This document shows positions 1 through 46,340 of a stretch of DNA of 46,856 nucleotides, in pieces. The stretch's first letter is position 1; each line of letters begins with the position of its first letter. The notes under the pieces were generated by a model. That model saw only the letters and a list, made by a program, of their open reading frames with translations. It did no database searches and was not told where the DNA came from. Where the stretch lies: the sequence record PZ379178.1; one strand, given 5' to 3'. The DNA is from a phage. The position numbers were made by a program, and so were the translations under genes.

Positions 1-390
1 CCGGCTGTTATCGCGATAGATGAGTGCTTAACTGGAGACACGATGATAACCACCGATTCAGGGATGATGAGGATTGATAGCGAAGACCTTATCAATCATA
101 AAATAAAATGCATAAACGAAAGCACTGGTGATTACTTCTATCATAAGCCAAAAAGAGTTTTTACTAATGGTGTAAGACATGTATCATCAATTAAATTAGA
201 AAGCGGAGAGGAAATAAAATGCACGAGTACACACAAACTTTATTCGAACGGCTGCTGGGTAGGAGCGGGAAAACTTCGTATTGGGATGAATCTGTCGCTA
301 GACGGCTCGCAGGACAAATTTACGAAAAAGCTCCTGCGTGCAAGTGTGGCTGTGGTGAAAAAGTTATGCCGCATTCAAGCAAGGGGTTAG
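1..390 (+). CDS. Helicase N-fragment (3-prime end, continues from window end) fused to split-intein N-half
   Basis: Frame-1 ORF open from nt 1 to stop 388-390; PAVIAIDE (helicase motif II) then Cys codon 25-27 starting intein block A CLTGDT and block B GEEIKCTSTH; joins in frame with ORF 46437..46856. Confidence 0.6.
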   Translation, partial: PAVIAIDECLTGDTMITTDSGMMRIDSEDLINHKIKCINESTGDYFYHKPKRVFTNGVRHVSSIKLESGEEIKCTSTHKLYSNGCWVGAGKLRIGMNLSLDGSQDKFTKKLLRASVAVVKKLCRIQARG

Positions 391-1073
391 GCGTACTTCT
401 TAAGAACCCTTTCGATTTCTATTTGGATTACAGAACGGGCCATCATAATTCAACCGTCAACCCATCAATGGAGGTTGATGACTTTTTACATCAAAACATT
501 CTTGCGGCAATGGCTGGTGATGGTTGCTTGATTAAAAATACAGAAAAAGGAACGCATAGGCTATCTTGGAATATGGGAAATAAGGAGCACGCACTAAGCA
601 AGGTTGAAAGGTTTGCAAAACTAAACCCTAGATACAGGGAGAAGAAAAACCCTGGATTTGGCGACAACTGGTTTTGCGTATCAACATCATGTACGAAAGT
701 TCTGGATTCATATGCTGATAAGTACGGAAATTCTAAGGATGGTTACGATATTGGAAAGATATGCAGAGAGCTTAATCCAGTTGGTTGGGCTGCTTACTTT
801 GGTGATGATGGTCATTGCACTGTAAGCTCAGGGAAGAGGGTTGTAGAAATCCACACCGAATCATTTAGCAGGCGTGAAGTTCAATCAGTAGTTGATGCGC
901 TAATAGCATTTATTGCTAATGACGGAGTTAAGGTTAGAAGCTATATTGGCGGCAAGAAAAAGAGAGAGCTTTACTCAGTATCAATAACAACGAGGTCGGC
1001 ACAAGATGAGTTTTTTAAGAGAATTAGTAAGCACATGGAAAATGGCGTGGAATACAAAATCAAGCAAAATTAA
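366..1073 (+). CDS. LAGLIDADG-family homing endonuclease, free-standing ORF between intein halves
   Basis: Frame-0 ORF 219..1073 with two LAGLIDADG-like motifs (LAAMAGDGCL and AAYFGDDGHC); start 366 is first ATG with GGTGA-like SD, 219 is an alternative; overlaps both intein-half ORFs in a different frame. Confidence 0.55.
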   Translation: MPHSSKGLGVLLKNPFDFYLDYRTGHHNSTVNPSMEVDDFLHQNILAAMAGDGCLIKNTEKGTHRLSWNMGNKEHALSKVERFAKLNPRYREKKNPGFGDNWFCVSTSCTKVLDSYADKYGNSKDGYDIGKICRELNPVGWAAYFGDDGHCTVSSGKRVVEIHTESFSRREVQSVVDALIAFIANDGVKVRSYIGGKKKRELYSVSITTRSAQDEFFKRISKHMENGVEYKIKQN

Positions 1074-11548: not shown

Positions 11549-11705
11549 GGGGTGAATGAATGGTGGATGAACTACCATACAAGTTGATTTTGATTCTTGC
11601 TGAGCCAATTTGGATATACACGTTATCGAAGTTATGGTGTGTATATGAGGTGCGCTTCCGAAGAATCATACACGCCTACCACGCTAGATTACGCAATGGT
11701 TACAT

Positions 11706-11762
11706 AATAATATCTATATATATCAACCTTTTACTATATTATTATTATTATTATATATATGT
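11706..11762. repeat. AT-rich (TTA)n element, copy A
   Basis: TAATATCTATATATATCAACCTTTTACT-ATATTATTATTATTATTATATATAT; near-identical copy at 39501-39556. Confidence 0.8.
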
Positions 11763-12027
11763 ATGTATATGGTGTAGATTGGTCGTATGGATGGGTCGAT
11801 AGTTTTTCTATGAAAACTACTAATTTTATCTATATAGATACATATGCATATCCCCGGCGAATCCGCGTAAAATCTTACACAGGGTAATTACACCAGCTAT
11901 AGCTGGGCTGAGAGGTCAAAAAGCGTAACCAATGCAGATATAAACACAACATAACACTTGATAACGCGTATATTCATGATACCATGGTTTCATCTTAACG
12001 AAGAGCAACCAATCAGGAGTAACGAAT

Positions 12028-15689: not shown

Positions 15690-15886
15690 TGAATAAAATT
15701 ATTAAGAAAGGCGATGCTATCAAGTGCACAAAGGCGGCATCGGATGACTTCATGGATGGATGCGATTACCAGGTCGAAAAGGTATCGAAGACTGGCCACG
15801 TATTCTGCTACAGCGATAATGGCGAATTGGTGAGCATTGACTACCCGTATGACCAGAATTATGGGAAATTCGAAAGAGTAAGTTGA
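15686..15886 (+). CDS. Hypothetical small protein
   Basis: 66-aa ORF with ATGA overlap. Confidence 0.45.
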   Translation: MMNKIIKKGDAIKCTKAASDDFMDGCDYQVEKVSKTGHVFCYSDNGELVSIDYPYDQNYGKFERVS

Positions 15887-16074
15887 CACATCTAACCCTG
15901 ACTGGTACATTAACAACTGTAGACAGACGAGGCCACCAAGTGGCAACGGCGCACGGAGCGCAACACAAAGTCCATAGCTCACTAAGCAGCGTATATGGCG
16001 AAATCGGTCGAGAAACTCGACGCTGGAAGCGTAACCAGCAATCCTTCAATAGCGCAATCGCTACTCAAGGATTT

Positions 16075-16150
16075 GTTCTGCTGGCGTAACAGGATAACGC
16101 AAAGACCTCCTAAGTCTTAGTTACTGGTTCGAGTCCAGTGCGGAACACCA
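16075..16150 (+). tRNA. tRNA-Arg (anticodon CCU)
   Basis: Hand-folded cloverleaf: 7-bp acceptor stem (one G-U), U8, 4-bp D stem, 5-bp anticodon stem with loop CTCCTAA (U33, CCT, A37), T arm ACTGG-TTCGAGT-CCAGT, discriminator A and encoded CCA. Confidence 0.8.
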
Positions 16151-16181
16151 AATTAAGAAACCAATAATCCTGGGGGATTAA

Positions 16182-16394
16182 ATGAAAAAAGTAACAATCA
16201 TCGTAAAAGATATTGAAAGCGGCACTTCCCAAAAATTCAACGCAACACTTGACCGTGAACATAAATGCTTAAAGGGTGTGATTGGCGGGGTTTCAGTTAG
16301 CGCGGATATTAAAGGTTATCTCGAGCTTGAAAGAGAAACTCAAAACTATAGCAATCAGAGCGGGAAGATAAAAAATGCAGCTTTGGGATGTTAA
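16182..16394 (+). CDS. Hypothetical small protein
   Basis: 70-aa ORF downstream of tRNA. Confidence 0.45.
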   Translation: MKKVTIIVKDIESGTSQKFNATLDREHKCLKGVIGGVSVSADIKGYLELERETQNYSNQSGKIKNAALGC

Positions 16395-16563
16395 GCTTTC
16401 AATCCGATTAATGGGTCGTAGTTGCAAAAGTTGCACTCAAGAATTTATCGCGTCGGTTACTGCTAAGTCCTCAGAGGAAGCAGTAGCGAAAGTTAAGGTA
16501 ATGTCTGGTGCCGACCCGGATTACCACAAATTCCTAGTAGCTTACGTTCGTGAGCGAAAGTAA
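16375..16563 (+). CDS. Hypothetical small protein
   Basis: 62-aa ORF with CKSC motif; followed by terminator 16617-16640. Confidence 0.4.
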   Translation: MQLWDVKLSIRLMGRSCKSCTQEFIASVTAKSSEEAVAKVKVMSGADPDYHKFLVAYVRERK

Positions 16564-16616
16564 AAGAAGTTCTACTCTCTGTTTGTTTCATATCTCTCGT
16601 TGTTGTTCGATACTTC

Positions 16617-16640
16617 GCCCTCTTCTTGAGGGCTTTTTTT
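16617..16640 (+). terminator. Rho-independent terminator (end of early block)
   Basis: GCCCTC-TTCTT-GAGGGC followed by T7. Confidence 0.65.
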
Positions 16641-16651
16641 CGTTTGCTATA

Positions 16652-16660
16652 TGATATAAT
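16652..16660 (+). promoter_or_regulatory. Extended -10 promoter candidate upstream of terminase small subunit
   Basis: TGATATAAT (TGn-TATAAT) directly after terminator 16617-16640; similar ATGATAT motif after terminators at 6875, 23108 and 24178. Confidence 0.3.
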
Positions 16661-16687
16661 GCATCTCTAAACAAAGGAGGTAACAAA

Positions 16688-17212
16688 ATGAAAGACGAAA
16701 ACTTCACCAGTCAGGCGCAAGAAAAGGTCCGCTCTGGCAACTTTAAAGCCATGTACAATAAAAAGTACTCAGACATTACAACGCTAGCCAAAAACCGAAG
16801 CATGACACCCGAACAGCTATTTGAATTCGCCGTGAAATACTTCTCATGGGCTGAGGACCAGGCAATCAAGGCAATCGAGACAGCCAGCTTCCAGGGTGTG
16901 GTAAAAGAGAGCCTGGTGCACAAACCACGAGTCTTCACGCTAACCGGATTCTGCCTTTACTGCGGTGTCACCCATAGCGCCATCGAGAAATGGAGGAAGT
17001 CGGCTGGTTATGATGAGGTGATTGCGTTCATTGATTCCGTGATTCGCGAGCAGAAATACCAGCTTGCAGCATCTGGCATTGTTAACCCTGGCATGATTTC
17101 CAAGGAGCTTGGAATCGACAAACCGCAGGAGATCACTATAAGCAATAACTCTTCTGCTAACGACGTCGAAACGATGAAGGAAGCTCTGGAGTCTGTGATT
17201 AGTAAGCTGTAA
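16688..17212 (+). CDS. Terminase small subunit (putative)
   Basis: 174 aa directly upstream of terminase large subunit, first gene of late block after terminator; AAAGGAGG SD. Confidence 0.5.
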   Translation: MKDENFTSQAQEKVRSGNFKAMYNKKYSDITTLAKNRSMTPEQLFEFAVKYFSWAEDQAIKAIETASFQGVVKESLVHKPRVFTLTGFCLYCGVTHSAIEKWRKSAGYDEVIAFIDSVIREQKYQLAASGIVNPGMISKELGIDKPQEITISNNSSANDVETMKEALESVISKL

Positions 17213-33874: not shown

Positions 33875-36800
33875 ATGGCACAAATGGTCAAAACAAATGC
33901 GGAGCTATGTGATATGGCGGAAGAAATTAAGATTTATGGAAGTAAGGGCGGACAGCCAAAGCAGCACCAACCTGTAGAGCAGCCTGATAACCTGATATCC
34001 GTAAACAAGGTTAAGGTTTTGCTAGCTGTTTCTGATGGTGAGGTTGATAGCTCATTCTCCCTAAAGGACCTTTACCTTGCTGACGTTCCTGTACAGAACC
34101 AGAATGGCACATACAACTACGAGGGTGTAACGGCAGAGTTTCGCCCTGGCACACAGAGTCAGGATTACATTGCCGGGCTAGAGGGTGCTAACTCGGAAGT
34201 GCAAGTGAACAGGGAGATTAAAAACTCAACTCCTTACATCATTGCTGTTAATAACACCCAGCTATCAGCGATTAGGGTTAAGCTGTTTTGGCCTCGTCTG
34301 ATTAATCAGGAAAGTAACGGAGATCTTAACGGTACCACTTGCGAGTATGCGATTGACCTGTCCGTTGATGGCGCTACATACACTGAGTACACGCGCGGAG
34401 TAGCTAATGGCAAGACAACTAGCGGGTACGACAGAAGTATCAGGGTTAACCTTCCTGCTGAGTTCTCGAGTGCGTTGGTGAGGGTTCGTAAGATCACGGC
34501 AGATTCAGAAAGTTCGACGCTGGTTAACGACATGCAAATTACGACCTATCAGGAAGTAATTGATGCTAAATTCCGCTACCCACTTACAGCGCTGGTTTAC
34601 GTTGAGTTCAGTTCTGACCTCTTCCCTAACGGAATCCCGACGATTTCAATCAAGAAGAAGTGGAAGTTGATTCGCGTTCCGACTAACTACAACCCAGAGA
34701 CAAGGACTTACAGCGGAACCTGGAACGGCACCTTTAAGATGGCGTATTCCAATAACCCGGCGTGGGTTCTTTACGACTTGGTGACGAATCAGCGTTACGG
34801 ACTTGACCAGCGAGAGCTTGGCATTACTATTGATAAGTGGGGTCTGTATGAGGCGGCGCAATTCTGTGACCAGATGGTTCCAGATGGTAAGGGTGGAGTT
34901 GAGCCGCGCTACCTGTGTGATGTTGTCATTCAGCAGAAAGTTGAAGCATATCAGGTAATCCGTGATATTTGCTCTATCTTCCGTGGGCTGACATTCTATG
35001 ACGGCGAGCAGATAGGGATTGTTGTCGATAAGCCGCGTCAACCATCGTACGTATTCACCAATGACAACGTTGTTGATGGATTGTTCAACCGTACATTTGG
35101 TAGCGATAAGTCACTTTACACGGTTGCCAACGTTCAGTTTGATGACGTTGAAAACTCATACCAACAGGATGTTGAGCCAGTATTCGAGTTAGAGGCAACA
35201 AGGCGTTTTGGTTACAACCCGGTCGACCTTACAGCTATTGGATGTACTCGCAGGAGTGAGGCAAACCGCCGCGGGCGCTGGTTATTAAAGACGAACATTC
35301 GCAGCGAGACTATTAGTTTCACTACTGGTCTGGAAGGTATGATTCCAATGATTGGTGAGGTTATTGCAGTTAATGACCAGGCATGGTCTAGCAACTACAC
35401 CCTTAACCTTTCTGGTCGTATCGAGTCAGTAAGTGGGTTGCAAGTTTTTGTGCCATTTAAGATTGATGCTACTGCTGGCGACAGGATTCTAATAAACAAG
35501 CCTGATGGAATGCCAGAGTACAGGACCATTGCATCTGTATCTGAAGATGGTATGACGCTGCAACTTAATACAGCGTTTAGCTTTACTCCTCAGCCTGACA
35601 CAGTATTTGCGATTGATAAGGAAAATCTTGCTCTTCAGCAATATGTTGTGACCGGTATTCAAAAAGCAGACAGCGATGGAGATGATGCGTTTGGTTACAC
35701 GATTACCGCAGTTGAGTACGACCCGAACAAATACGACGAGATTGATTACGGCGTAAACATTCAGGACAGGCCAACTTCAATCGTGGAGCCAGATACATTA
35801 CTGGCACCCGAGAATGTTCAGGTTAGCAGTTACAGTAAGGTTGTTCAGGGTTTATCAGTTGAGACAATGGTAATCACGTGGGACAAGGTTCAGTACGCGA
35901 AAACCTACACGGTCCAGTGGCGCAAGGAGAACGGAAACTGGATTAACGTGCCGCGCACAGCAAGCACAGAGGTTGATATTGAAGGTATCTATGCCGGAAT
36001 TTACCAGGTTCGCGTAAGGGCCGTTTCTGATACTGAAAACGTATCCGCATGGTCTGACATTGTTTCAGTAAGCCTCACAGGCAAGATTGGGACCCCTTCT
36101 TCACCTACAGTAATCACCGCTTCAGATGATGAAATATTCGGCATTAGGGTTAAGTGGGGATTTCCTGAAAACTCAGCCGATACGTCATACACTGAATTGC
36201 AGCAAGTAGCCGACAATGGTGATGGTACTTATACACCAGAGAATGCTAGCCTTCTGACTCTGGTGCCTTACCCGAGTTACGAGTACTGGCATACTACACT
36301 TCCTGCTGGAAAGGTCATCTGGTACAGGGCGCGACTGATTGACAAGATTGGTAACGTCTCACCATGGACTGATTTTGTAAGGGGTATGGCAAGCGATGAT
36401 GTGTCGTCAATCATTGGTGATATTAAGGTTGATATAGAAAACTCAGATGGGTTCAAGTATCTCCAACAGAATGCCATTGAGTCAAACGGAGCTATTCAGG
36501 CGCAAGCGGAATCAATAATTGAGAACGCCCTGGCTAATGATGGTGACGTGCGTAGAATGACGAAGGAAAACGGCAAGAGGAAGGCCGAATTTGTTCAGGC
36601 TGTGAATCTTATCGCCGATGAAGAAAGGGCTCGCGTAGAGGCTCTGACGCAGCTTAAGGCGCAGATTGATGATGAGATTGTAGCTTCATTGACAAGGATT
36701 GATACGGCGCTAGCGGAAGAGACGCAAGCAAGGACCACTGCGGACACTGCTTTATCTGCAAGGCTAGGTGATAATGAGGCTGCGTTAAATGAGAAGTTGG

Positions 36801-37300
36801 ACACTTACGTTACTGCCGATTCAATTGGTGCTCAGTACGGGATTAAACTTGGCCTCAAATACAATGGCGTTGAGTACAGTTCTGGCATGAGTATGGAGCT
36901 AACTGGTTCTGATGGCAATGTTCGTAGTCAGGTCATCTTTGATGCTAACAGGTTAGCAATCAGTAACGGCATTAGCTCTGGATCCGGTCAGTGGTCATTG
37001 CCTTTCGTAGTTGAAGGTAATCAGGTATTCATTCAAAGCGCAGTGATTCAGGATGGTTCAATCACTAACGCGAAGATTGGTAACCGGATTCAATCTAATA
37101 ACTACGTGGCTGGTTCTCAGGGTTGGGCCATTGATAAGTCAGGCAGTGCGGAACTTAACAATGCAACTGTAAGGGGTAGTCTGTACGCAAGTAACGGCAA
37201 CTTTGCGTTTAACGGAACCAACAACACTGTTCAGATTAACAATAATGGAATTACAGTTAATTTACCGAATGGTGGAAGGGTTGTAGTTGGAGTGTGGTAA
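33875..37300 (+). CDS. Host specificity / central tail fiber protein (gpJ-like)
   Basis: 1141 aa, last and largest gene of tail-tip cluster after I-like gene. Confidence 0.75.
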   Translation: MAQMVKTNAELCDMAEEIKIYGSKGGQPKQHQPVEQPDNLISVNKVKVLLAVSDGEVDSSFSLKDLYLADVPVQNQNGTYNYEGVTAEFRPGTQSQDYIAGLEGANSEVQVNREIKNSTPYIIAVNNTQLSAIRVKLFWPRLINQESNGDLNGTTCEYAIDLSVDGATYTEYTRGVANGKTTSGYDRSIRVNLPAEFSSALVRVRKITADSESSTLVNDMQITTYQEVIDAKFRYPLTALVYVEFSSDLFPNGIPTISIKKKWKLIRVPTNYNPETRTYSGTWNGTFKMAYSNNPAWVLYDLVTNQRYGLDQRELGITIDKWGLYEAAQFCDQMVPDGKGGVEPRYLCDVVIQQKVEAYQVIRDICSIFRGLTFYDGEQIGIVVDKPRQPSYVFTNDNVVDGLFNRTFGSDKSLYTVANVQFDDVENSYQQDVEPVFELEATRRFGYNPVDLTAIGCTRRSEANRRGRWLLKTNIRSETISFTTGLEGMIPMIGEVIAVNDQAWSSNYTLNLSGRIESVSGLQVFVPFKIDATAGDRILINKPDGMPEYRTIASVSEDGMTLQLNTAFSFTPQPDTVFAIDKENLALQQYVVTGIQKADSDGDDAFGYTITAVEYDPNKYDEIDYGVNIQDRPTSIVEPDTLLAPENVQVSSYSKVVQGLSVETMVITWDKVQYAKTYTVQWRKENGNWINVPRTASTEVDIEGIYAGIYQVRVRAVSDTENVSAWSDIVSVSLTGKIGTPSSPTVITASDDEIFGIRVKWGFPENSADTSYTELQQVADNGDGTYTPENASLLTLVPYPSYEYWHTTLPAGKVIWYRARLIDKIGNVSPWTDFVRGMASDDVSSIIGDIKVDIENSDGFKYLQQNAIESNGAIQAQAESIIENALANDGDVRRMTKENGKRKAEFVQAVNLIADEERARVEALTQLKAQIDDEIVASLTRIDTALAEETQARTTADTALSARLGDNEAALNEKLDTYVTADSIGAQYGIKLGLKYNGVEYSSGMSMELTGSDGNVRSQVIFDANRLAISNGISSGSGQWSLPFVVEGNQVFIQSAVIQDGSITNAKIGNRIQSNNYVAGSQGWAIDKSGSAELNNATVRGSLYASNGNFAFNGTNNTVQINNNGITVNLPNGGRVVVGVW

Positions 37301-37306
37301 ATGATT

Positions 37307-37330
37307 AGGCCCCTTTCGGGGCCTTTTCTT
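37307..37330. terminator. Bidirectional terminator between J-like gene and minus-strand operon
   Basis: AGGCCCC-TTTC-GGGGCCT followed by TTTTCTTTT; convergent genes end at 37300 and 37331. Confidence 0.65.
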
Positions 37331-38302
37331 TTAGTAGAAGTTTGGTATGAATGGTAGAGCCATTGATATGTTTGTGTCGAATGGGAATTGGGCTCCCGTC
37401 TGCGTTGAGTAGTTCCCTATCACAGTGCCTGGAACTGCCCTTACGGCACCACCAGACATGCATATTCCCTTGTACCTTAAGTTGTTATACCCTCCAGTAA
37501 CTCTTGTTGTAGCGCCGCACCTGAGCAGTGGGAAGAACCCTCCATTTATTGACTGGAAACCATTGGTTATTTGTATAAAGCCACCAAGCACGAACGGTCG
37601 CCTGACGCTTGAAAAAACAATCTGTCCAGAACTATTAGACATTGTGAGTCCTGGGCCAGCTACTGGAGGGTCATTCCTGAATATCACTAACTGTACGTAA
37701 GTACTTGCTGCAACGTCATCTATGCCGCTGTAGTTTATGTTGCGGCACCAAATTGTATTACCGTCGCTCTCCAGAGAAACGTTTGGGTTATCCCATTTAC
37801 CAAATGGAATCCCACTGACTGGTAGTGAGGCGGCGCCGTTAACCTGTATTCCACCAACCCATGCCGCAGACATTAACCGCGAATTGCTTGAAATTGCCAA
37901 AAAGTCAGTTGAGTTCTCAACCAGTATTCCTGGGCTTGATGAAGACGAGGCTGGGAGTATTTCAAAGCAATTTCCAGCAAAGTCAATTATACGACCTCTT
38001 GCGCCATTGAAGTCACTAAGCGTTATCCTGCCAGTTCCGTCATTTACCTTCTGGAACCCGTTCATATAATAAACTTCAGGTACAACATCATAAGCGTCAA
38101 CGTGCACAGCCTTTGTTGGAAGGCAGAATGCTGTTGAGCCTGTGGACATGGTTAAACCAAAATCCCATGATGATGCTGGCGTCGAAAGTCCATTGGTATT
38201 TATTGAGCCAGTCACAGCGGGCGCTCTTAATCCTGCCGTTATTTCCATAGGTGGCCTTCCGTCGTTGAGGTCTATCAATATACCCTGTGGCATTATTTCC
38301 AC
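37331..38302 (-). CDS. Hypothetical Gly/Ser/Asn-rich protein, cotranscribed with lipoprotein gene
   Basis: 323-aa ORF overlapping 3-prime end of 38293..38538 by 10 nt; convergent with J-like gene at bidirectional terminator. Confidence 0.5.
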
Positions 38303-39380: not shown

Positions 39381-39500
39381 TTTATCGCAAATTTACCCAT
39401 AAATCATGGTTACGCGTAATCGATGTAACTCGATGTATACCATATGCATCCGCGGGAAATCGTATACGCCTAGTTACGCCAGTTTACGCCATAGTTACAC

Positions 39501-39556
39501 TATAATATCTATATATATCAACCTTTTACTCTTATTATTATTATTATATATATTAC
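39501..39556. repeat. AT-rich (TTA)n element, copy B
   Basis: TAATATCTATATATATCAACCTTTTACT-CTTATTATTATTATTATATATAT; 28-nt core identical to 11708-11735. Confidence 0.8.
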
Positions 39557-39871
39557 TGTGTATATCATGTAACTACTGTTCTGGAGTGTTCCGGTTATAA
39601 TTTTTATATCATGTGATTTTATACAGTATTGCGCAGCACCTATACCTATGCACCCTCCGCTAAAATCGGTATACACGGTATACTCACTATTTACATTGAG
39701 CTATAGCTTGGCTTAAGTGGCGAAAAACGTAACTCATGCCAATGTCTACACGTAGTTACAAAATTATACGCGTATACTTGATTAATTAATAGGTGATACC
39801 AATTGGACTATGCGTTGTGCGTACGGCATCATTAACTCATCGAAAGCACGCAACAATAGAGAGATAGAGAA

Positions 39872-40069: not shown

Positions 40070-41041
40070 ATGACATTTAAAGTTTATACGAACGACGAGC
40101 TAACCAATGAAGCCTATCACGAAGAGAAAGACCATATCTCTGGCTCTTCGCTGGCTGAGATTCTTGCTACTTCTCCAGCAAAATGGAAATTTAAGCAGCG
40201 CAGCAACTCAAGTGCAGCACTAAAGTTTGGCACTTTGAGCCATACGATGATGCTAGAACGTGAAGTGTTCGATTCCACTTACATGCGAGCTACTGACTTT
40301 GACGAAGTGGAAGGATTGATTACTAGCCAAACAGCTTTATCGGCAGCGCTTAAAAAAGTTGGCGTTTCCGGCACGTCAGGGAAGGGTTATAACGAGCTTG
40401 TGGAGATGATGTATAAGTCTGGCGAGGATTGGCCGGTTAAATGGTTAATTGAGCAGCAGGAGAGCGCTGAGGCGTTAATTAGTGGCAAGGAGCTGGTTAG
40501 TGCTAAAGATTACGACAAGGTAATCGCAATGCGAGAAGTTCTGACCAATATTCCGGCTTACGATGCGGTAATTAATTCACCAACAGCACAGAAAGAGCTG
40601 TCAATCTTTGGTGAGATTCTCGGCTGCGGCGTTAAGGTTCGGCTTGACCACGTGGATGTTGTTAATGGAGTGGTTTACATTACTGACTATAAAACAACAG
40701 CAGACGCAAGCCCGAGAGGATTTGGTAAGTCAGCTTATGACCATGGTTACCTGTGTAAGATGGCACTTCAGCGCGATTTGTTTGTTAAAGCATTCAACGA
40801 AAAGCGTAAGGTTGTGGTTCGACTTCTGGCTCAGGAGAAAACAGAGCCCTACTTACCTATGTGCTACACACTTACAGATGAGCAGCTTCGCATTGGGCGC
40901 TTACAATATTTAGAGGCTCTGGCTGTTTACAAGCAGTGCAAGGAACTTGATGATTGGCCTGGATACAGTAATGGGATTACAGAGCAAGATTTGATGATTC
41001 CTGAGTGGGTAAATAAGCAGTATCAAGAATTACTAAAATAG
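40070..41041 (+). CDS. PD-(D/E)XK-type exonuclease (putative recombination exonuclease)
   Basis: VRLDHVDV ... VYITDYKTT matches D...D/E-x-K nuclease core; directly upstream of annealase and SSB. Confidence 0.5.
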   Translation: MTFKVYTNDELTNEAYHEEKDHISGSSLAEILATSPAKWKFKQRSNSSAALKFGTLSHTMMLEREVFDSTYMRATDFDEVEGLITSQTALSAALKKVGVSGTSGKGYNELVEMMYKSGEDWPVKWLIEQQESAEALISGKELVSAKDYDKVIAMREVLTNIPAYDAVINSPTAQKELSIFGEILGCGVKVRLDHVDVVNGVVYITDYKTTADASPRGFGKSAYDHGYLCKMALQRDLFVKAFNEKRKVVVRLLAQEKTEPYLPMCYTLTDEQLRIGRLQYLEALAVYKQCKELDDWPGYSNGITEQDLMIPEWVNKQYQELLK

Positions 41042-41111
41042 CACGAATTGCTAAAGACAAAATTAACTGGTGGGGTATCATTACCCCATCGAAACGAAAG
41101 AGAGATGTGGA
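41039..41111 (+). promoter_or_regulatory. Box-hairpin-leader cassette
   Basis: Box TAGCACGAATTGCTAAA 41039-41055, hairpin GGGGTA/TACCCC, leader CATCGAAACGAAAGAGAG from 41087. Confidence 0.5.
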
Positions 41112-41762
41112 ATGAAAACTTCTGAGCAAAACAAGCAAGTATTGAAGGCGTTATTCGAGGCTAAATCAAAGTTTGCTAAGGCTGAAAAGTCTAAGCAGAA
41201 CTCACACCTCAAGAATAAGTACGCTACTTTAGATGATGTTTTAGCAGCTGTAGAGCCAGGATTGGCTGATAGCGGACTGGTGATGTTTCAGTCGATGATT
41301 GATGATGATGTAAGCACTCGTATTAAGGTTGAAACAACAGTTTACCATGCAGAATCTGGAGAGTGGGTTAGTTTCCTGACCATAGTCCCAATCAGTAAGC
41401 AAGATGCTCAAGGTTATGGGTCATCACTTACATACGCTCGCCGTTACGCAATCACAGCGGCGTTAGGTTTAAGCCAGGCAGATGATGATGGTCAGTTAGC
41501 AGTTAAAGGCATCAACTCATTCAAGAAAGACTTGGCTAAGTGCAGTACTCTTGATGACCTCCGTGATGTTTACAAAGAGGCGAAGCAGTCACTTGATTCA
41601 GCCGGCTGGTTAGTGCTTGAGCCTCACATTATCGAGCGCAAGGTAGAGATTCAGGCCAATGCAACTAGCGGCTTTAACCCAGCAAAACCTAAGCAGGTTG
41701 CACAAAAGCCTGTTCAAGAAGAAAAAGTTGAAGTACAATCTCAAGAAATCGATACATTCTAA
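41112..41762 (+). CDS. Single-strand annealing protein, Erf-family-like
   Basis: KNKYATLDDVLAAV ... SSLTYARRYAITAALGL resembles conserved ERF core; ATG 41112 is 73 nt downstream of promoter box 41039. Confidence 0.55.
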   Translation: MKTSEQNKQVLKALFEAKSKFAKAEKSKQNSHLKNKYATLDDVLAAVEPGLADSGLVMFQSMIDDDVSTRIKVETTVYHAESGEWVSFLTIVPISKQDAQGYGSSLTYARRYAITAALGLSQADDDGQLAVKGINSFKKDLAKCSTLDDLRDVYKEAKQSLDSAGWLVLEPHIIERKVEIQANATSGFNPAKPKQVAQKPVQEEKVEVQSQEIDTF

Positions 41763-41802: not shown

Positions 41803-42219
<417 letters not shown>

Positions 42220-42229
42220 TAAAAGATAA

Positions 42230-42252
42230 AGCCCCTTTCGGGGCTTTTTTTA
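42230..42252. terminator. Bidirectional terminator between SSB and tail fiber genes
   Basis: AGCCCC-TTTC-GGGGCT followed by T7; convergent gene ends 42219 and 42250. Confidence 0.65.
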
Positions 42253-44778
42253 TTGAAGCGCCATCCTTGAGTTGGTAAATATTAAAGCGTCTCTTTGGTT
42301 ATCGAACTCTACAACGAAGTAATCAGCAAGACTTAATACCATACCAGGTAGCCCATTAAGGTTGATATGCAGGTTTGCAGTGCCAGAGACTGAAGCCTGA
42401 GCAACTCCAAATGTGTGAACCCACTTACCGCCCTCAGTGAATACCTTCCCTAAAGATGCACTACCAAAAATACTGATAACACCATCAGCACCACCTTGAA
42501 TTCTGTTTGCAGAGATACCCCAAACATACCATTTGCCAGCGGTTATATTAAAGACACCATTTATCAATTCGTACTGAGCCGCACCACCCAATTCGTAGTA
42601 TCCAGATGATTGCGAGTGTATACCCCTTGTATCAGAACCTTCACTTGCCGACCCTGTTCCACCAAAGTTGTTCCCACCAGTACCAAAAGGCTTCCTGACT
42701 AAAACAGTTCCGGAATCAGGGTTAAAAACTCGACCTTTAGTAACATATCCTCTAACAGATAAGTCAGATGTACCCGTTATCTTGGCTGTCTGTGATACCA
42801 GTGACTCAACTATAACGTTTGATGTTGAAGAGCCATTCAGGTATGCATCCTTAGCAAAAATAATACTGTTTGAATCAAGAGAGAAACTTTGATGCCCGTC
42901 AGCGTTATCAAACCTGCAACCGTAAGTAATAAGGTTTGAGTTCGACAACTCAATGTTATTAATGTAGGAATGCTCAGCAAAGAAAACAGACGTATCGATG
43001 AGCTTCAAAACCCTTGGGAGTTCAGCTCCCTCACCTACGTTAATTGCCCCACCAGTTGCTATCGCTTCAAACCATACGTTAGACAATCCGCAAGGTGATG
43101 TTGGGCAATCTCCAGGTTTATTCTTTAACCTTATACCGCCGCCAGCAGAGGCCTCCATTATTGAATCCCTAATCCACCACCCACCAATTCCTCCAGCGCC
43201 AGGGTTCGTTGCGCTACTTGTGCTTGTCGCATCTAGCATTACTGAATATTGAGAGATTGTATCTGAGTGGTATCCGTATAAAGTGTCCGCTCCTATATGC
43301 ATTTCGTCATGAGCTTTTGCTCGATACCCGTAATTCGCATTTCTAATACTTACGTTTCTGTAGGTATTTCCAATGTTGCCAGCATTTTTCCTTATACCAA
43401 CATCCAGGTCATTGAAGTAAAGCCTATCCAATACAACCCTTCCAGCATAAGGGCCATCCGGGAATTGAAAGCCGTTATTACCTTGTATTGCAGTACCTGT
43501 AAACTGCAAATCCGATAAATGCTTTTGCCTCCAGTGCGGAACCGATAGCGTTGAGGTGAGTCCGGTTTCAAAAGGTTTAACACTTATTACGGTATTATAT
43601 CCAGAGCCTGATATGTTCCTGCCAGCAAAGGAGTAGTTATTACTCTCATAAGTTCCCGGGCTTATAACTACCGACCCGCCATCGCCAGCGGCTTCTATTG
43701 CTGAAGATATTGAGCCGCTATAGCTTGATGTGCTTTTTGAATCTGTATTTAAAATTGATGATAATTCGCTCTTTGAGTAAACATCAAGGTTGGTTCTTGC
43801 TTCTGCTTTATCTGCAACATCAGATAAATTCAATGATTTTTGAAAAGTCTCATTTTTTGAGTAAACATCAAGCAAGCCTCTTACTCGCTGGGCGCTAGCG
43901 CCGCCAACCTTACTTCCTGATGCGACATAAAGAGCCTCTCTTGAATAGTAAGTTTTGTTTGGTGCCGTGCCAGTCTGAGTTAAATCAATCAACCTGTACG
44001 TATTATCGGATCCGGTTGATGCTGACACTTGTATGTTCTTAACACCAGTAATCCCCCTTGATGACTTAACCTCAATCGCACAAAGCGTGCTATCGGAGTA
44101 GGTTATATTTATCACCTCTGGAGCGTTGATCATTGCTGACTTTTGGCATAGGTATCTAGCTCCTGATTTGAAATCAAACGTATTCCAGTCAAGTTCTGTC
44201 AACTGAGGTGTAAACGAGCCACCGATACCCATATTGGCAAGAGTTACCATTGTGCCAGCATCACCAGCACTATTAATTGCCTCAATAGTAGCATCTCTCG
44301 CTGATGTGGTTGTATCCCTTGCGCTAACGGCAGTAGCGGCGCTCTCTGCGGCAGCAATCTGGCTAGCTAAAGACTCGGCAGCCCCTGTTACTGATTGGTT
44401 TGCTAATTGCTCGAAGCGAGGCCAATCGAAATTATCTTGCCCGATAAATTGCAGCAAACTTTCAATAGAAGTCTCCTTTGACTGATAGTAACGCAGAGTC
44501 TCAGCAACATCCTGAGCTAAACCCTGAACGGTAATGCCATCGTGAGCAAGAATCGCGTAACCAGTTCCGGCAGGAACAGTTTCAGAATTAGGGTTGTAAA
44601 CATTAATCTGAGTGTCGCTGATGATTTCAGAGATGGTATAAATTTTAAGTGGACTGGTTTTAAAAATAATGGTTGCACCTACACGAATAAGTGTAAGTGG
44701 TGCTTTCCATGTTGTCCGGACGCCAGTAACCTCGCCATTTGCGGCTAGCGACGCTGTTCCTAAGTCATAAATTGCCAT
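42250..44778 (-). CDS. Tail fiber / tailspike-like protein
   Basis: About 842 aa; central region with repetitive Asn/Gly/Ser-rich beta-helix-like segments; start ATG 44778 preferred over GTG 44808. Confidence 0.6.
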   Translation of the reverse strand: MAIYDLGTASLAANGEVTGVRTTWKAPLTLIRVGATIIFKTSPLKIYTISEIISDTQINVYNPNSETVPAGTGYAILAHDGITVQGLAQDVAETLRYYQSKETSIESLLQFIGQDNFDWPRFEQLANQSVTGAAESLASQIAAAESAATAVSARDTTTSARDATIEAINSAGDAGTMVTLANMGIGGSFTPQLTELDWNTFDFKSGARYLCQKSAMINAPEVINITYSDSTLCAIEVKSSRGITGVKNIQVSASTGSDNTYRLIDLTQTGTAPNKTYYSREALYVASGSKVGGASAQRVRGLLDVYSKNETFQKSLNLSDVADKAEARTNLDVYSKSELSSILNTDSKSTSSYSGSISSAIEAAGDGGSVVISPGTYESNNYSFAGRNISGSGYNTVISVKPFETGLTSTLSVPHWRQKHLSDLQFTGTAIQGNNGFQFPDGPYAGRVVLDRLYFNDLDVGIRKNAGNIGNTYRNVSIRNANYGYRAKAHDEMHIGADTLYGYHSDTISQYSVMLDATSTSSATNPGAGGIGGWWIRDSIMEASAGGGIRLKNKPGDCPTSPCGLSNVWFEAIATGGAINVGEGAELPRVLKLIDTSVFFAEHSYINNIELSNSNLITYGCRFDNADGHQSFSLDSNSIIFAKDAYLNGSSTSNVIVESLVSQTAKITGTSDLSVRGYVTKGRVFNPDSGTVLVRKPFGTGGNNFGGTGSASEGSDTRGIHSQSSGYYELGGAAQYELINGVFNITAGKWYVWGISANRIQGGADGVISIFGSASLGKVFTEGGKWVHTFGVAQASVSGTANLHINLNGLPGMVLSLADYFVVEFDNQRDALIFTNSRMALQ

Positions 44779-44802
44779 TGTGTAAAGTCTCCATTTGTAA
44801 AG

Positions 44803-44819
44803 TAGCACTAATTGCTAAA
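44803..44819. promoter_or_regulatory. Isolated box copy TAGCACTAATTGCTAAA with ambiguous orientation
   Basis: Box overlaps tail fiber 5-prime region (start 44778, minus) and lies beside primase terminator hairpin 44853-44866; no downstream leader on plus strand. Confidence 0.35.
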
Positions 44820-44843
44820 GTGGATTGTATCATCTTTCAGGTA

Positions 44844-44866
44844 TAAAAAAACCTCCCGAAGGAGGT
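44844..44866 (-). terminator. Rho-independent terminator after primase gene (minus strand)
   Basis: CCTCC-CGAA-GGAGG with A7 on plus strand (T-run on minus). Confidence 0.55.
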
Positions 44867-45792
44867 TAGTCTAGTAATTCGTTTGCCTTGTATATTCTCT
44901 TTCTTATGCCTGACTTGAAAAAATTACCATCATTTGGAATTACAATATCAAGATTGCGATCGTCAGCAACGGCAAGTAAATCAAAAGAGTTGCGAGTACA
45001 AGCGACGCGTAACTTGTAGTTCCTAAGCGCATAAGCAACCATTTCCATGTTGTAGCTGGAGTGGCAAACAAGCACGCAGCGATTTCCAGTAGCAAGATGA
45101 ACGCGAACACCATCAATCCAATTATCGACCAGATAAGCGTACTCATCATCTTTAAAGGTGCCAATAATAGAAACAGACTGGCGAGTATAATCTTTTGCAG
45201 CATAGCTAACATCTCCATCTTCATTGATAAACATTACATTGCACATATCATCTGATATGCCGTCACTATAAGCCATAAAGCACGGTACTGCGTGTATTAG
45301 TTCGCCTGATTTCGTCCTGCCAACATCAAAACCAAATTCGCTATAGATACCCTCGTATGTACTTAGCGGAGTTAATTCTACTCTTTCCGTCCTTTCCATT
45401 ATCTCTAAGCATCTTTCGTGATCAATCTTGGCGCCCATTTTGTATGGTGATGTACGAGATGCTCTTTTGTTTGCTTTTGATATAACCTCTACTGGAACGA
45501 GATTCAGCCAATCACCAAGCGTATCTATTGTTTCGCTATAACTCATTCCCGAGCATTTCATAACCCAGCCAACACCAGAATCATTTCCGCACTGGTTGCA
45601 TATTGCTGCGCCATTTCCCTTTTCCTGACCTAACTCATCAGTGAAGCGAAACCTATCCCTGCCAAAGCAGTAAGGGCACGGACCATGTTTCTTGCTGAGA
45701 TTCTCCTTTGTCCATCCAAGGTTCGATGAGTAGAATTCGCCCCACATTCCCTTCATTTTTGCTATCACTTCGCTCTTATCATGGTGACTCAT
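44866..45792 (-). CDS. DNA primase-like protein (zinc-binding domain)
   Basis: N-terminal CPYC-x17-CNQC zinc-ribbon; start 45792 with GGAGG SD; promoter box upstream (45844-45860). Confidence 0.5.
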   Translation of the reverse strand: MSHHDKSEVIAKMKGMWGEFYSSNLGWTKENLSKKHGPCPYCFGRDRFRFTDELGQEKGNGAAICNQCGNDSGVGWVMKCSGMSYSETIDTLGDWLNLVPVEVISKANKRASRTSPYKMGAKIDHERCLEIMERTERVELTPLSTYEGIYSEFGFDVGRTKSGELIHAVPCFMAYSDGISDDMCNVMFINEDGDVSYAAKDYTRQSVSIIGTFKDDEYAYLVDNWIDGVRVHLATGNRCVLVCHSSYNMEMVAYALRNYKLRVACTRNSFDLLAVADDRNLDIVIPNDGNFFKSGIRKRIYKANELLD

Positions 45793-45860
45793 AGTTACCT
45801 CCATAAACAATAAAGGCACTATACACAATGTATAGCGCCACTGTTTATCAATTCGTGCTA
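45793..45860 (-). promoter_or_regulatory. Box-hairpin-leader cassette (minus orientation)
   Basis: Reverse-complement box TAGCACGAATTGATAAA (45844-45860), palindrome CTATACATTGTGTATAG, GGAGG SD; precedes primase ATG 45792. Confidence 0.5.
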
Positions 45861-46340
45861 TTTCCCTTGCTCTTTATCTTTTCGTGCTGCTTCGTTAGCG
45901 GCCTTAATCTTGCGCCATGAGCGACACTCTGGTTTAGTTGCTAGCTCAGCCTCAGTAACAACACGCAGCATATGACGCTTCTTGCAACGTAGAGTTAGCG
46001 GTTTCCCGTTACCGTCGAATTGCAGATCTGGTCGGCAGAATGTAGCGCGAAAACCTTCTCCATTTCGCTTATAGTAGTTGTGCGACAACTGAGCGCCACG
46101 CGCAGAAATCATCCCGCGATCAAACCATTGCTCTACAGTCTGGTGAGATACATTTAACTGCTTGGCGATATTGGCCTTCGTGCCGTAGAAATCAAGAACC
46201 ATCTCCAGACGAGCTCGTAGCCCAGCCTTTACTTCATCTTTCAATACGTAGTAGCCTGACGGTCGTTTGCGCTGTTTCTTGTCTTGCGTGCGGATGGTTC
46301 CGTTATTGCCGTTGATAGTTCGCTTGTCAATTTCACACAT
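45858..46340 (-). CDS. HTH-type DNA-binding protein (putative regulator)
   Basis: 160 aa, basic; TKANIAKQLNVSHQTVEQW resembles helix-turn-helix. Confidence 0.45.
   Translation of the reverse strand: MCEIDKRTINGNNGTIRTQDKKQRKRPSGYYVLKDEVKAGLRARLEMVLDFYGTKANIAKQLNVSHQTVEQWFDRGMISARGAQLSHNYYKRNGEGFRATFCRPDLQFDGNGKPLTLRCKKRHMLRVVTEAELATKPECRSWRKIKAANEAARKDKEQGK

Follow-up and report, generated by a model that had tools for sequence, protein, structure and literature searches.

A probable lateral tail fibre gene with a mosaic structure and a predicted beta-helix tip, located between the recombination and primase genes of a T1-like phage

The minus-strand gene at 42250..44778 of the window (the whole stretch of 46,856 nucleotides of phage DNA analysed, record PZ379178.1) very probably codes for the lateral, or side, tail fibre of a T1-like siphovirus belonging to the Drexlerviridae, Braunvirinae. 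Its product joins a family-wide N-terminal anchor to a tailspike-type tip with a predicted right-handed parallel beta-helix, and the gene is a mosaic. The gene layout, the locus, the equivalence to T1 and a 96% identical allele are all already known or public; the only mildly fresh point at the locus is an inverted repeat box downstream of a conserved extended -10 element.

Results

Identity and position of the gene

A preliminary description of this DNA had noted an ORF of about 840 amino acids on the opposite strand, and we found there a CDS of 842 amino acids. The ORF list gives it as 42250..44808 (minus strand, 852 aa) with a GTG start. This start at 44808 was ruled out, and the ATG at 44778 is taken as the real one, because the homologues start there, opening with MAIY or MALY, and the RBS suits the ATG. 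An ORF of 842 codons with homologues at E = 0 far exceeds chance. Two tail fibre PHROGs matched the protein (PHROG 24092 with E 5e-161, and a second with E 8e-136), the annotated tail fibre of phage AN_ECEAS is 86% identical to it in amino acid sequence, and the public protein P0003 is 96% identical. An exact-sequence look-up of the protein in a 15-billion collection found no entry. The Pfam search with the whole protein and with the tip gave no match apart from a weak hit to Glyco_hydro_49N (E 0.07).

The gene calls agree with the earlier placement away from the late block, between recombination and primase genes. The fibre gene is preceded on the map by the plus-strand Erf and SSB genes and followed by the minus-strand primase gene (Table 1), about 5 kb past the terminase-to-gpJ block, which is entirely on the plus strand (terminase 17282, portal 19356, capsid 23194, tape measure 28349, gpJ 33875-37300). 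The two flanking terminators that had been described were likewise found. The bidirectional hairpin was calculated at -13.9 kcal/mol on the plus strand and -15.0 kcal/mol on the minus strand, and T1 has an equivalent site annotated on both strands. With the primase terminator, the fibre gene is insulated from the operon that precedes it; this terminator is kept in AN_ECEAS, ACG-M12, G8 and T1, and almost all of the 69 related upstream regions have it. As for the T1 fibre ST26, the gene comes directly after the primase gene on its strand and converges with the SSB and recombination genes. The gene order is the same in T1, ACG-M12, G8 and AN_ECEAS, and also in 51 of 75 IMG/VR loci. Because the separate location is thus a fixed Drexlerviridae trait, it does not by itself indicate mobility; of the earlier view that such a location is typical of an exchangeable module, the exchangeability holds but the argument from location does not.

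Table 1. Features of the fibre locus, in map order (aa, amino acids of the fibre protein)
Feature	Position	Strand	Remarks
RecE-like exonuclease	40070-41041	+	
Erf	41070-41762	+	PF04404
SSB	41803-42219	+	phrog_44
Bidirectional intrinsic terminator	42228-42247	both	Hairpin AAAGCCCCTTTCGGGGCTTT; common to the convergent SSB and fibre genes
Lateral tail fibre / tailspike CDS (probable)	42250..44778	-	842 aa + stop
C-terminal beta-sandwich, CBM-like jelly roll (predicted)	42253..42708	-	aa ~691-842; pLDDT 90-98
Right-handed parallel beta-helix (predicted)	42742..43674	-	aa ~369-679
Conserved linker	43807..43881	-	GLLDVYSKNETFQKSLNLSDVADK; aa 300-324, 75 nt; holds the recombination crossover
Small beta-sandwich domain (predicted)	43924..44211	-	aa 190-285; pLDDT 85-94
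Ala/Ser-rich helical stalk (predicted)	44233..44448	-	aa 111-182; AF2 monomer helices aa 84-182, low confidence
N-terminal virion anchor	44449..44778	-	aa 1-110; beta domain aa 1-78 and invariant motif GLAQDVAETLRYYQS
RBS	44789..44792	-	GGAG, 10 nt before ATG; read from the sequence; kept in aligned relatives
Isolated box	44803-44819	+	TAGCACTAATTGCTAAA; between -10 and RBS, inverted relative to the fibre gene
Candidate extended -10 promoter	44824..44832	-	TGATACAAT; TGnTA(C/A)AAT in 5/5 aligned phages including T1
Primase terminator	44850-44867	-	Followed by U7; -12.3 kcal/mol
Primase	44866-45792	-	PF08273/phrog_510
HTH regulator	45858-46340	-	

Architecture of the fibre protein

The conserved N-terminal anchor of about 100 amino acids that characterizes ST26-type fibres, including AQDVAETLRYYQS, is present in the protein. 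In an alignment of 108 homologues there are 29 invariant columns, every one of them inside aa 1-99. The anchor is homologous to those of the solved Webervirus depolymerases DpK2 and Depo32 (E 4e-33). The N-terminal model was of low confidence overall (pLDDT 69), with pLDDT of 85-92 over aa 11-70, and the Foldseek search with it gave no structural match (best E 0.09). The stalk that follows is presumed to be a trimeric coiled coil. The small beta-sandwich behind it shows 93-99% nucleotide identity to G8 and ACG-M12 and about 50% to AN_ECEAS.

Beta-helix-like repetitive segments had been suspected in the preliminary description, with structure prediction proposed as a check, and the AF2 monomer model (pLDDT 88.4, pTM 0.85) indeed contains a right-handed parallel beta-helix, the body of pectin-lyase-fold tailspikes. 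The outcome named there as refuting, a prediction showing neither a fibre nor a beta-helix fold, did not occur. On this model, the beta-helix would be the glycan-binding body and probably also the catalytic one. The predicted C-terminal domain gave local Foldseek matches to CBM22 and CBM16 modules (TM, target, 0.53-0.57). The fibre gave no Pfam match to the C-terminal intramolecular chaperone PF13884 of Peptidase_S74-terminated fibres, which are frequent among Drexlerviridae, and its C-terminus is this beta-sandwich. In the PDB profile search with the tip alignment, every significant match fell on the foreign N-terminal anchors carried by other aligned sequences, P22 head-binding among them. 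By itself, the helix retrieved pectinesterase alone (E 0.11-0.24), over its N-terminal cap only; therefore, the tip belongs to a family without a solved relative.

Mosaicism and exchange of the tip

Comparison with relatives, which had also been proposed, gave homologues of the anchor, the locus and the tip, and showed the gene to be mosaic. The 5' 900 nt correspond to phage G8 at 97-100%, while the rest corresponds to ES10 and AN_ECEAS at 91-100%; the tip is 96.6% identical to that of AN_ECEAS in amino acid sequence. In a three-way alignment the linker is common to the window, G8 and AN_ECEAS, and the window follows G8 on its 5' side and AN_ECEAS on its 3' side, so that a sharp breakpoint was mapped to 43807-43881.

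Elsewhere, the same anchor carries C-terminal domains of at least six other types (PF13884, PF25670, PF21882, PF12708, PF03009 and PF03372), and the same tip rides on the P22 Head_binding (E 5e-65), T7 tail-fibre N-terminal and Tail_spike_N or TSP1/gp66-type anchors. With varied Pfam domains on one anchor and a breakpoint inside the gene, the C-terminal part is hypervariable and modular, as in the ST26 type. The many tips of the anchor, the many anchors of the tip and the intragenic breakpoint show directly that the receptor-binding module is exchangeable, as proposed earlier, and the tip is a cassette swapped by recombination at the linker. The composition of the tip gave no signal of foreign origin (GC 0.442 vs 0.431, GC3 0.364 vs 0.362). 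The fibre is one more case of the documented exchange of tailspike cassettes among siphoviruses, podoviruses and prophages, and the linker marks a natural splice point for host-range engineering.

Upstream region

The conserved extended -10 element is a candidate promoter of the fibre gene, and the TGnTAnnnT motif was found in most of the 69 distinct upstream regions. With this promoter and the two terminators, the gene would form an insulated single-gene transcription unit. Copies resembling AAGATGATACAAT elsewhere in the window numbered 30 against 20 expected, so it is not a recurring motif.

The isolated box mentioned in the preliminary description is real, and is a copy of a known 21-nt Drexlerviridae repeat. 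The repeat was described in phage TLS, where its function was given as an open question (PMC11447400). The box perfectly matches a motif with 18 copies in the window against 1.6 expected, and an inverted copy stands at the equivalent place in 31 of 69 related loci. That the box folds into a hairpin in the 5' UTR RNA was unsupported (-5.2 kcal/mol, z -0.73). Nor was it accepted as a plus-strand (antisense) promoter, whose supposed -10 (TATAAA) deviates by 2 nt from normal spacing; T1 does not conserve this hexamer, although it does keep the minus-strand TGnTAnAAT.

About a dozen other promoters in the window have the same element, with the palindrome centre ~41 bp upstream of the predicted start site, which is the geometry of a class II activator site. 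It is conceivable, though doubtful, that the inverted copy is an operator at the fibre promoter, and that one phage factor activates the other promoters while holding that of the fibre off; the HTH regulator of 160 aa encoded two genes upstream would then be the candidate factor. If true, this would explain the timing of a virion gene embedded in the replication region and would give a function to the 21-nt repeat.

Discussion

We propose that the conserved N-terminal ~110 amino acids attach the fibre, which is presumably homotrimeric, to the tail, and that the helical stalk and the small beta-sandwich hold outwards a tailspike-type module consisting of the beta-helix and the C-terminal beta-sandwich. 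This module would bind a host surface polysaccharide and probably also cleave or modify it; the polysaccharide is most likely an O-antigen belonging to an extra-intestinal type of E. coli. Glycan binding may then provide a reversible primary adsorption, from which the tail tip reaches an outer-membrane protein receptor. In Drexlerviridae, the lateral fibre presumably recognizes a surface glycan that serves as the primary, reversible receptor, and the BASEL paper covers the lateral fibre locus and its proposed O-antigen role; according to its authors, a direct demonstration of O-antigen binding by these fibres has never been made (PMC8594841).

It is possible, but in our judgement unlikely, that the beta-helix is a glycan-binding lectin without enzymatic activity. 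Such a reading fits with the Pfam and PDB searches, which gave no sequence match to a catalytic family (the best was the pectinesterase at E 0.11), and with the homologue from ES17, for which only binding was detected (PMC7885116). Against it, the beta-helix tailspikes matching the fold are mostly hydrolases, lyases or esterases, and five acidic residues of the helix (D498, D538, E571, D624 and D635) do not vary among 58 sequences that reach down to 32% identity; this invariance is consistent with an active site.

The target might instead be a capsule (K-antigen) or another exopolysaccharide, with the fibre acting as a depolymerase not specific for O-antigen, which we regard as improbable. Many of the fold matches are capsule depolymerases, the ES17 homologue was modelled on K5 lyase by its authors (PMC7885116), and the anchor is common to the Klebsiella capsule depolymerases DpK2 and Depo32. 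However, these enzymes share the anchor only, with 9% identity in the catalytic body. The tip also occurs in some P22-type prophage tailspikes at 44-47% identity, and P22-type tailspikes are classically O-antigen enzymes. In addition, LM33_P1, which has the nearest tip among characterised phages, is linked to the O25b O-antigen clone by the title of its published description. The tip of about 470-500 amino acids is 46-49% identical to those of LM33_P1, ES17 and the fibres of Kagunavirus siphophages (93% coverage; E 1e-113 to 1e-121 for LM33_P1 and ES17), and at this identity its specificity need not match that of the O25b-associated phages. As for the closest phages, the O-type of the host is absent from the ES10 paper and none was found for AN_ECEAS.

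The fibre is the largest receptor-binding-type protein besides gpJ, which might suggest an essential terminal receptor-binding protein triggering DNA ejection. This is very unlikely: the terminal protein receptor of Drexlerviridae is assigned to a separate locus adjoining gpJ, and T1-type phages are described as able to do without their lateral fibres on rough K-12 hosts (PMC8594841). The window has its own such locus at 37331-38302, convergent with gpJ. The preliminary description had named the gene a likely host-range determinant; as the terminal receptor is assigned to the separate gpJ-adjacent locus, the fibre is one determinant among others rather than the sole one.

That the product is a non-virion soluble polysaccharide-degrading enzyme or a moron lying by chance in the replication region, as might be suggested by the early and middle genes around it and by its having a promoter and terminators of its own, is hardly credible, given the family-wide fibre anchor with its 29 invariant residues and the reports of T1-like fibre homologues as virion structural proteins (TLS Gp55, 78 kDa; PMC11447400).

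A lateral fibre with a glycan-recognizing tip is our preferred reading. It assigns the window to a Braunvirinae (T1-like) coliphage with its glycan-recognition gene labelled, and makes the tip a candidate for deciding which E. coli strains, smooth or encapsulated, adsorb the phage.

Comparison with known systems

The T1 tail fibre ST26 (YP_003919) agrees with the fibre of the window in the N-terminal anchor, position and strand. T1 also has the same order of an exoVIII-Erf-SSB-like gene set, bidirectional terminator, fibre, primase and regulator, and the same upstream arrangement of terminator, TGnTAnAAT, inverted box and RBS. The T1 fibre differs in having 728 amino acids, with an unrelated C-terminal two thirds, and is annotated by similarity to HK97/HK022 fibres. 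In the Braunvirinae phages AN_ECEAS (XES82184.1) and ES10 (OR466728), the fibre lies at the same locus with the 86% overall identity given above, but aa ~150-300 are unrelated (~50% nt), where the window has the beta-sandwich of the G8/ACG-M12 type.

LM33_P1 Gp17 (Kayfunavirus, O25b/ST131-specific) and the ES17 tail fibre protein are homologous over the whole tip. They are podovirus fibres, however, with a T7-type or G7C-type N-terminal adaptor, and they may differ in specificity; the reported ligand of ES17-TFP is heparan sulfate, not a demonstrated bacterial glycan (PMC7885116).

The Klebsiella Webervirus proteins DpK2 (7LZJ) and Depo32 (7VYV/7VZ3), which degrade K2 capsule, are homologous over the first 181 amino acids and have the same general layout (anchor, stalk, beta-helix, C-terminal domain). 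Sequence homology ends at aa 181, and past the anchor there is fold-level similarity alone, with 9-11% identity in structural alignments; the chains as modelled are shorter than those deposited (716 of 907 residues for 7LZJ, and 720-754 of 907-928 for 7VYV/7VZ3). The tailspikes of the P22 gp9, Sf6, HK620 and CBA120 TSP type likewise have a right-handed parallel beta-helix as the receptor-binding body, but use a head-binding or TSP N-terminus for attachment to podovirus or myovirus baseplates, not to a siphovirus tail.

Position and boundaries of the fibre gene

On the - strand, a single long reading frame extends over 42250..44808. The ATG at 44778 has GGAG 10 nt upstream, and the homologues, which include solved depolymerases of Klebsiella phages, begin with the equivalent Met-Ala. 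The product of this lateral tail fibre (tailspike) gene is therefore 842 aa, close to the 840 aa or so of the preliminary description. The same description placed the gene outside the late block on the opposite strand, and indeed it lies about 5 kb away, while the morphogenesis genes, i.e., large terminase (17282), portal, major capsid, tape measure and the gpJ-like tip protein (33875-37300), are all on the + strand. The flanking bidirectional terminator, primase terminator and isolated box were also located. The bidirectional terminator, a perfect 8-bp, GC-rich hairpin bordered by a T-run on each strand, serves both convergent genes, SSB and fibre; its folding energies are -13.9 and -15.0 kcal/mol, values reached by 3 and 0 of 200 shuffled sequences. 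At the end of the primase gene stands a 7-bp hairpin with U7 after it (-12.3 kcal/mol), and the RBS also lies between this terminator and the fibre ATG.

Features in and around the fibre gene
Feature	Position	Orientation	Remarks
RecE/exoVIII-like PDDEXK nuclease	40070-41041	convergent	downstream of fibre gene
Erf	41070-41762	convergent	downstream of fibre gene; PF04404
SSB	41803-42219	convergent	downstream of fibre gene; phrog_44
Bidirectional terminator	42228-42247	both	
Fibre gene	42250-44778	-	
Beta domain	aa 1-78		confident; part of conserved anchor
Long helices	aa 84-182		low confidence as monomer
Beta-sandwich	aa 190-285		confident
Linker	aa ~294-345		poorly predicted
Right-handed parallel beta-helix	aa ~369-679		
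C-terminal beta-sandwich	aa ~691-842		
Crossover segment	43807-43881		aa 300-324; GLLDVYSKNETFQKSLNLSDVADK
Box TAGCACTAATTGCTAAA	44803-44819	+ strand reading	between primase terminator and fibre ATG
TGATACAAT	44824-44832		between primase terminator and fibre ATG
Primase terminator	44850-44867		
Primase	44866-45792	as fibre gene	upstream; PF08273, phrog_510
HTH regulator	45858-46340	as fibre gene	upstream
Promoter-like TAGCACnnnTTGCTAAA box copies, e.g.	3134, 6561, 13169, 13852, 18899, 27323, 41039, 46354	+	
Promoter-like TAGCACnnnTTGCTAAA box copies, e.g.	45860, 39380, 38622, 11426, 10806, 10026	-	

The SSB-like protein has a run of 22 glutamines (CAA/CAG repeat, 42133-42200) directly before its acidic C-terminal tip FNDDIPF. 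A second GGCCCCTTTCGGGGCC hairpin (37295-37332), which shares 82% identity with the terminator region of fibre and SSB over 38 nt, divides gpJ from a convergent 323-aa gene at 37331-38302 (-), assigned to phrog_1265 'membrane protein'. By its position, this gene is the gpJ-proximal receptor-binding/superinfection-exclusion locus of Drexlerviridae. Its counterpart in AN_ECEAS is preceded by a small lipoprotein gene.

Domains and fold of the fibre protein

The Pfam search of the protein gave no match; in PHROGs, aa 1-371 and aa 239-841 matched two tail-fibre families (E 5e-161 and 8e-136). The conserved N-terminal part (anchor) is homologous over aa 1-181 to the Webervirus capsule depolymerases DpK2 (7LZJ) and Depo32 (7VYV/7VZ3; E 4e-33). 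Across 108 aligned anchor homologues, 29 positions were invariant, and all of them fell within aa 1-99. The N-terminal model as a whole had a pLDDT of 69, and a structural search with it returned no significant match. The model of aa 335-842, built from an alignment of 58 homologues, was almost entirely beta (pLDDT 88.4, pTM 0.85). The tailspikes Kp7 gp52, K2-2 TSP, CBA120 TSP2, Sf6, P22 and HK620 headed its Foldseek list, and the last ~150 residues matched CBM22/CBM16 jelly rolls. The beta-helix suspected earlier is thus what structure prediction gives, with a tailspike fold. Within the helix, five acidic residues (D498, D538, E571, D624 and D635) were invariant down to 32% identity among the 58 homologues, which is compatible with an active site, short of proof.

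Exchange of modules and proposed function

The separated location of the gene had been called typical of exchangeable receptor-binding modules, and comparison with relatives shows such exchange. The tip, i.e., the C-terminal beta-helix and beta-sandwich, has relatives at 44-48% identity that bear three other anchor types: the P22 Head_binding domain (E 5e-65), the TSP1/gp66 Tail_spike_N domain and the T7 tail-fibre N-terminal domain. In the phage collection, the same tip recurred, with 46-49% identity across 93% of its length, in LM33_P1 and other Kayfunavirus phages, in ES17 and myPSH phages (genomes about 69-76 kb), and in Kagunavirus-type siphophages, e.g., Golestan, phiEc3/4 and fFiEco03. 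LM33_P1 is restricted to O25b:H4 ST131 hosts. Heparan sulfate binding was reported for the ES17 protein (PMC7885116). Conversely, the anchor is fused elsewhere to Peptidase_S74, PF25670, PF21882, Pectate_lyase_3, GDPD and Exo_endo_phos modules, and the tip described here was found in 0 of 80 IMG/VR anchor loci. A further match, H105 (MZ417522.1, Mycolicibacterium phage J1, 24,953 bp; 15845-16831), is a 47.6% identical copy of 65% of this enterobacterial tip; the record bears a mycobacteriophage label, which points to mislabelling or contamination rather than to genuine transfer between phyla.

The gene itself is a clear mosaic of G8 and AN_ECEAS in nucleotide identity. From 44780 to ~43880, identity to G8 was 97-100%, and that to AN_ECEAS was 79-87% over 44780-44331 and ~50% over 44330-43881. 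From ~43730 to ~42380, G8 fell to background and AN_ECEAS rose to 91-100%. Three-way alignment placed the crossover inside a 75-nt segment common to all three. Base composition did not differ between the two parts. A look-up in a 15-billion collection found no record of the exact protein sequence; the same mosaic is already in public data as the protein P0003 (NCBI/ENA/Logan contigs of ~46 kb), 96% identical over the full length.

The product would be a trimeric side fibre held by its N-terminus. Its tailspike-like tip would bind surface polysaccharide, giving reversible primary adsorption, and probably process it; irreversible binding would fall to the gpJ-proximal receptor-binding locus. This overall reading, standard for Drexlerviridae lateral fibres, is most likely, and enzymatic activity of the fibre is moderately probable. 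Fold, homology, synteny and mosaicism were shown, and oligomeric state, site of attachment, identity of the glycan and catalysis are inferred.

The repeat upstream of the fibre gene

The box motif is not specific to the fibre gene. Allowing at most one mismatch, TAGCA-N5-TGCTA had 18 copies in the window vs 1.6 expected (maximum of 6 in 200 shuffles). The oriented form TAGCACnnnTTGnTAAA had 21, nearly all intergenic and pointing the same way as the downstream genes. In most copies, a TATAAT-like hexamer stands 22 nt after TGCTA and a conserved CATCGAAACGAAAG leader comes next, so that the architecture across the window looks promoter-like. At such copies the 22-nt spacing places the palindrome centre ~41 bp upstream of the predicted start and excludes TTGCTA as a normal -35, and no sigma-70 -35 at a usable spacing was found at these sites. 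This element is the 21-nt repeat aaATAGCACnnnTTGnTAAAA described in phage TLS and also seen in T1, Rtp and Rogue1; the TLS paper expressly counts its function among the open questions (PMC11447400).

The copy at the fibre gene is unusual: it runs opposite to the gene, comes after TGnTA(C/A)AAT and stops 24 nt short of the ATG, and it lacks a -10 at the right spacing. AN_ECEAS, ACG-M12, G8 and T1 share this layout. Among 69 distinct upstream regions from IMG/VR, 31 had the inverted box and most had the terminator and a TGnTAnnnT element. The box was supported neither as an RNA hairpin nor as a + strand promoter; a putative operator is a reasonable guess. Only the regulatory meaning of this inverted repeat at the fibre promoter merits the attention of a specialist.

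Two AT-rich intergenic stretches of ~270 nt (11681-11947 and 39476-39751) are copies of each other (72-76% identical), both with TATATATATCAACCTTTTACT and ATT repeats. The spacing of ~27.8 kb recurs in the repeat families D6 and D12.

Comparison with T1-like phages

The DNA of the fibre region is ~90% identical to Escherichia phages ES10 (OR466728) and AN_ECEAS (PP944860; Drexlerviridae, Braunvirinae), and many vB_EcoS phages match it at 81%. Room upstream of the anchor was available in 75 IMG/VR loci; in 51 of them, the primase is the next gene upstream, on the same strand. In most of the remainder, that place is taken by an SSB gene, likewise on the same strand, so that the locus is a rearranged version. 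In these (L021, L022, L029, L036, L037, L045, L048 and others), the primase is ~3 kb further up, and the upstream region has TGCTATTAT without the box; this distinct sequence suggests that the group is probably, for the most part, Klebsiella Webervirus-like.

In Drexlerviridae, as the BASEL paper describes, the fibre locus has conserved recombination and primase/helicase genes on either side, conservation of the fibre gene across the family is limited to its 5' end, and O-antigen binding was proposed as its role, by the authors' statement without direct demonstration (PMC8594841). The finding is real and its earlier interpretation correct, and what it shows is textbook knowledge for T1-like phages. 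Gene order is alike in AN_ECEAS, ACG-M12, G8 and T1; in T1, a terminator annotated for both strands comes after exoVIII, Erf and ST27, and the opposite strand then carries tail fibre ST26, primase ST24, a terminator and regulator ST23.
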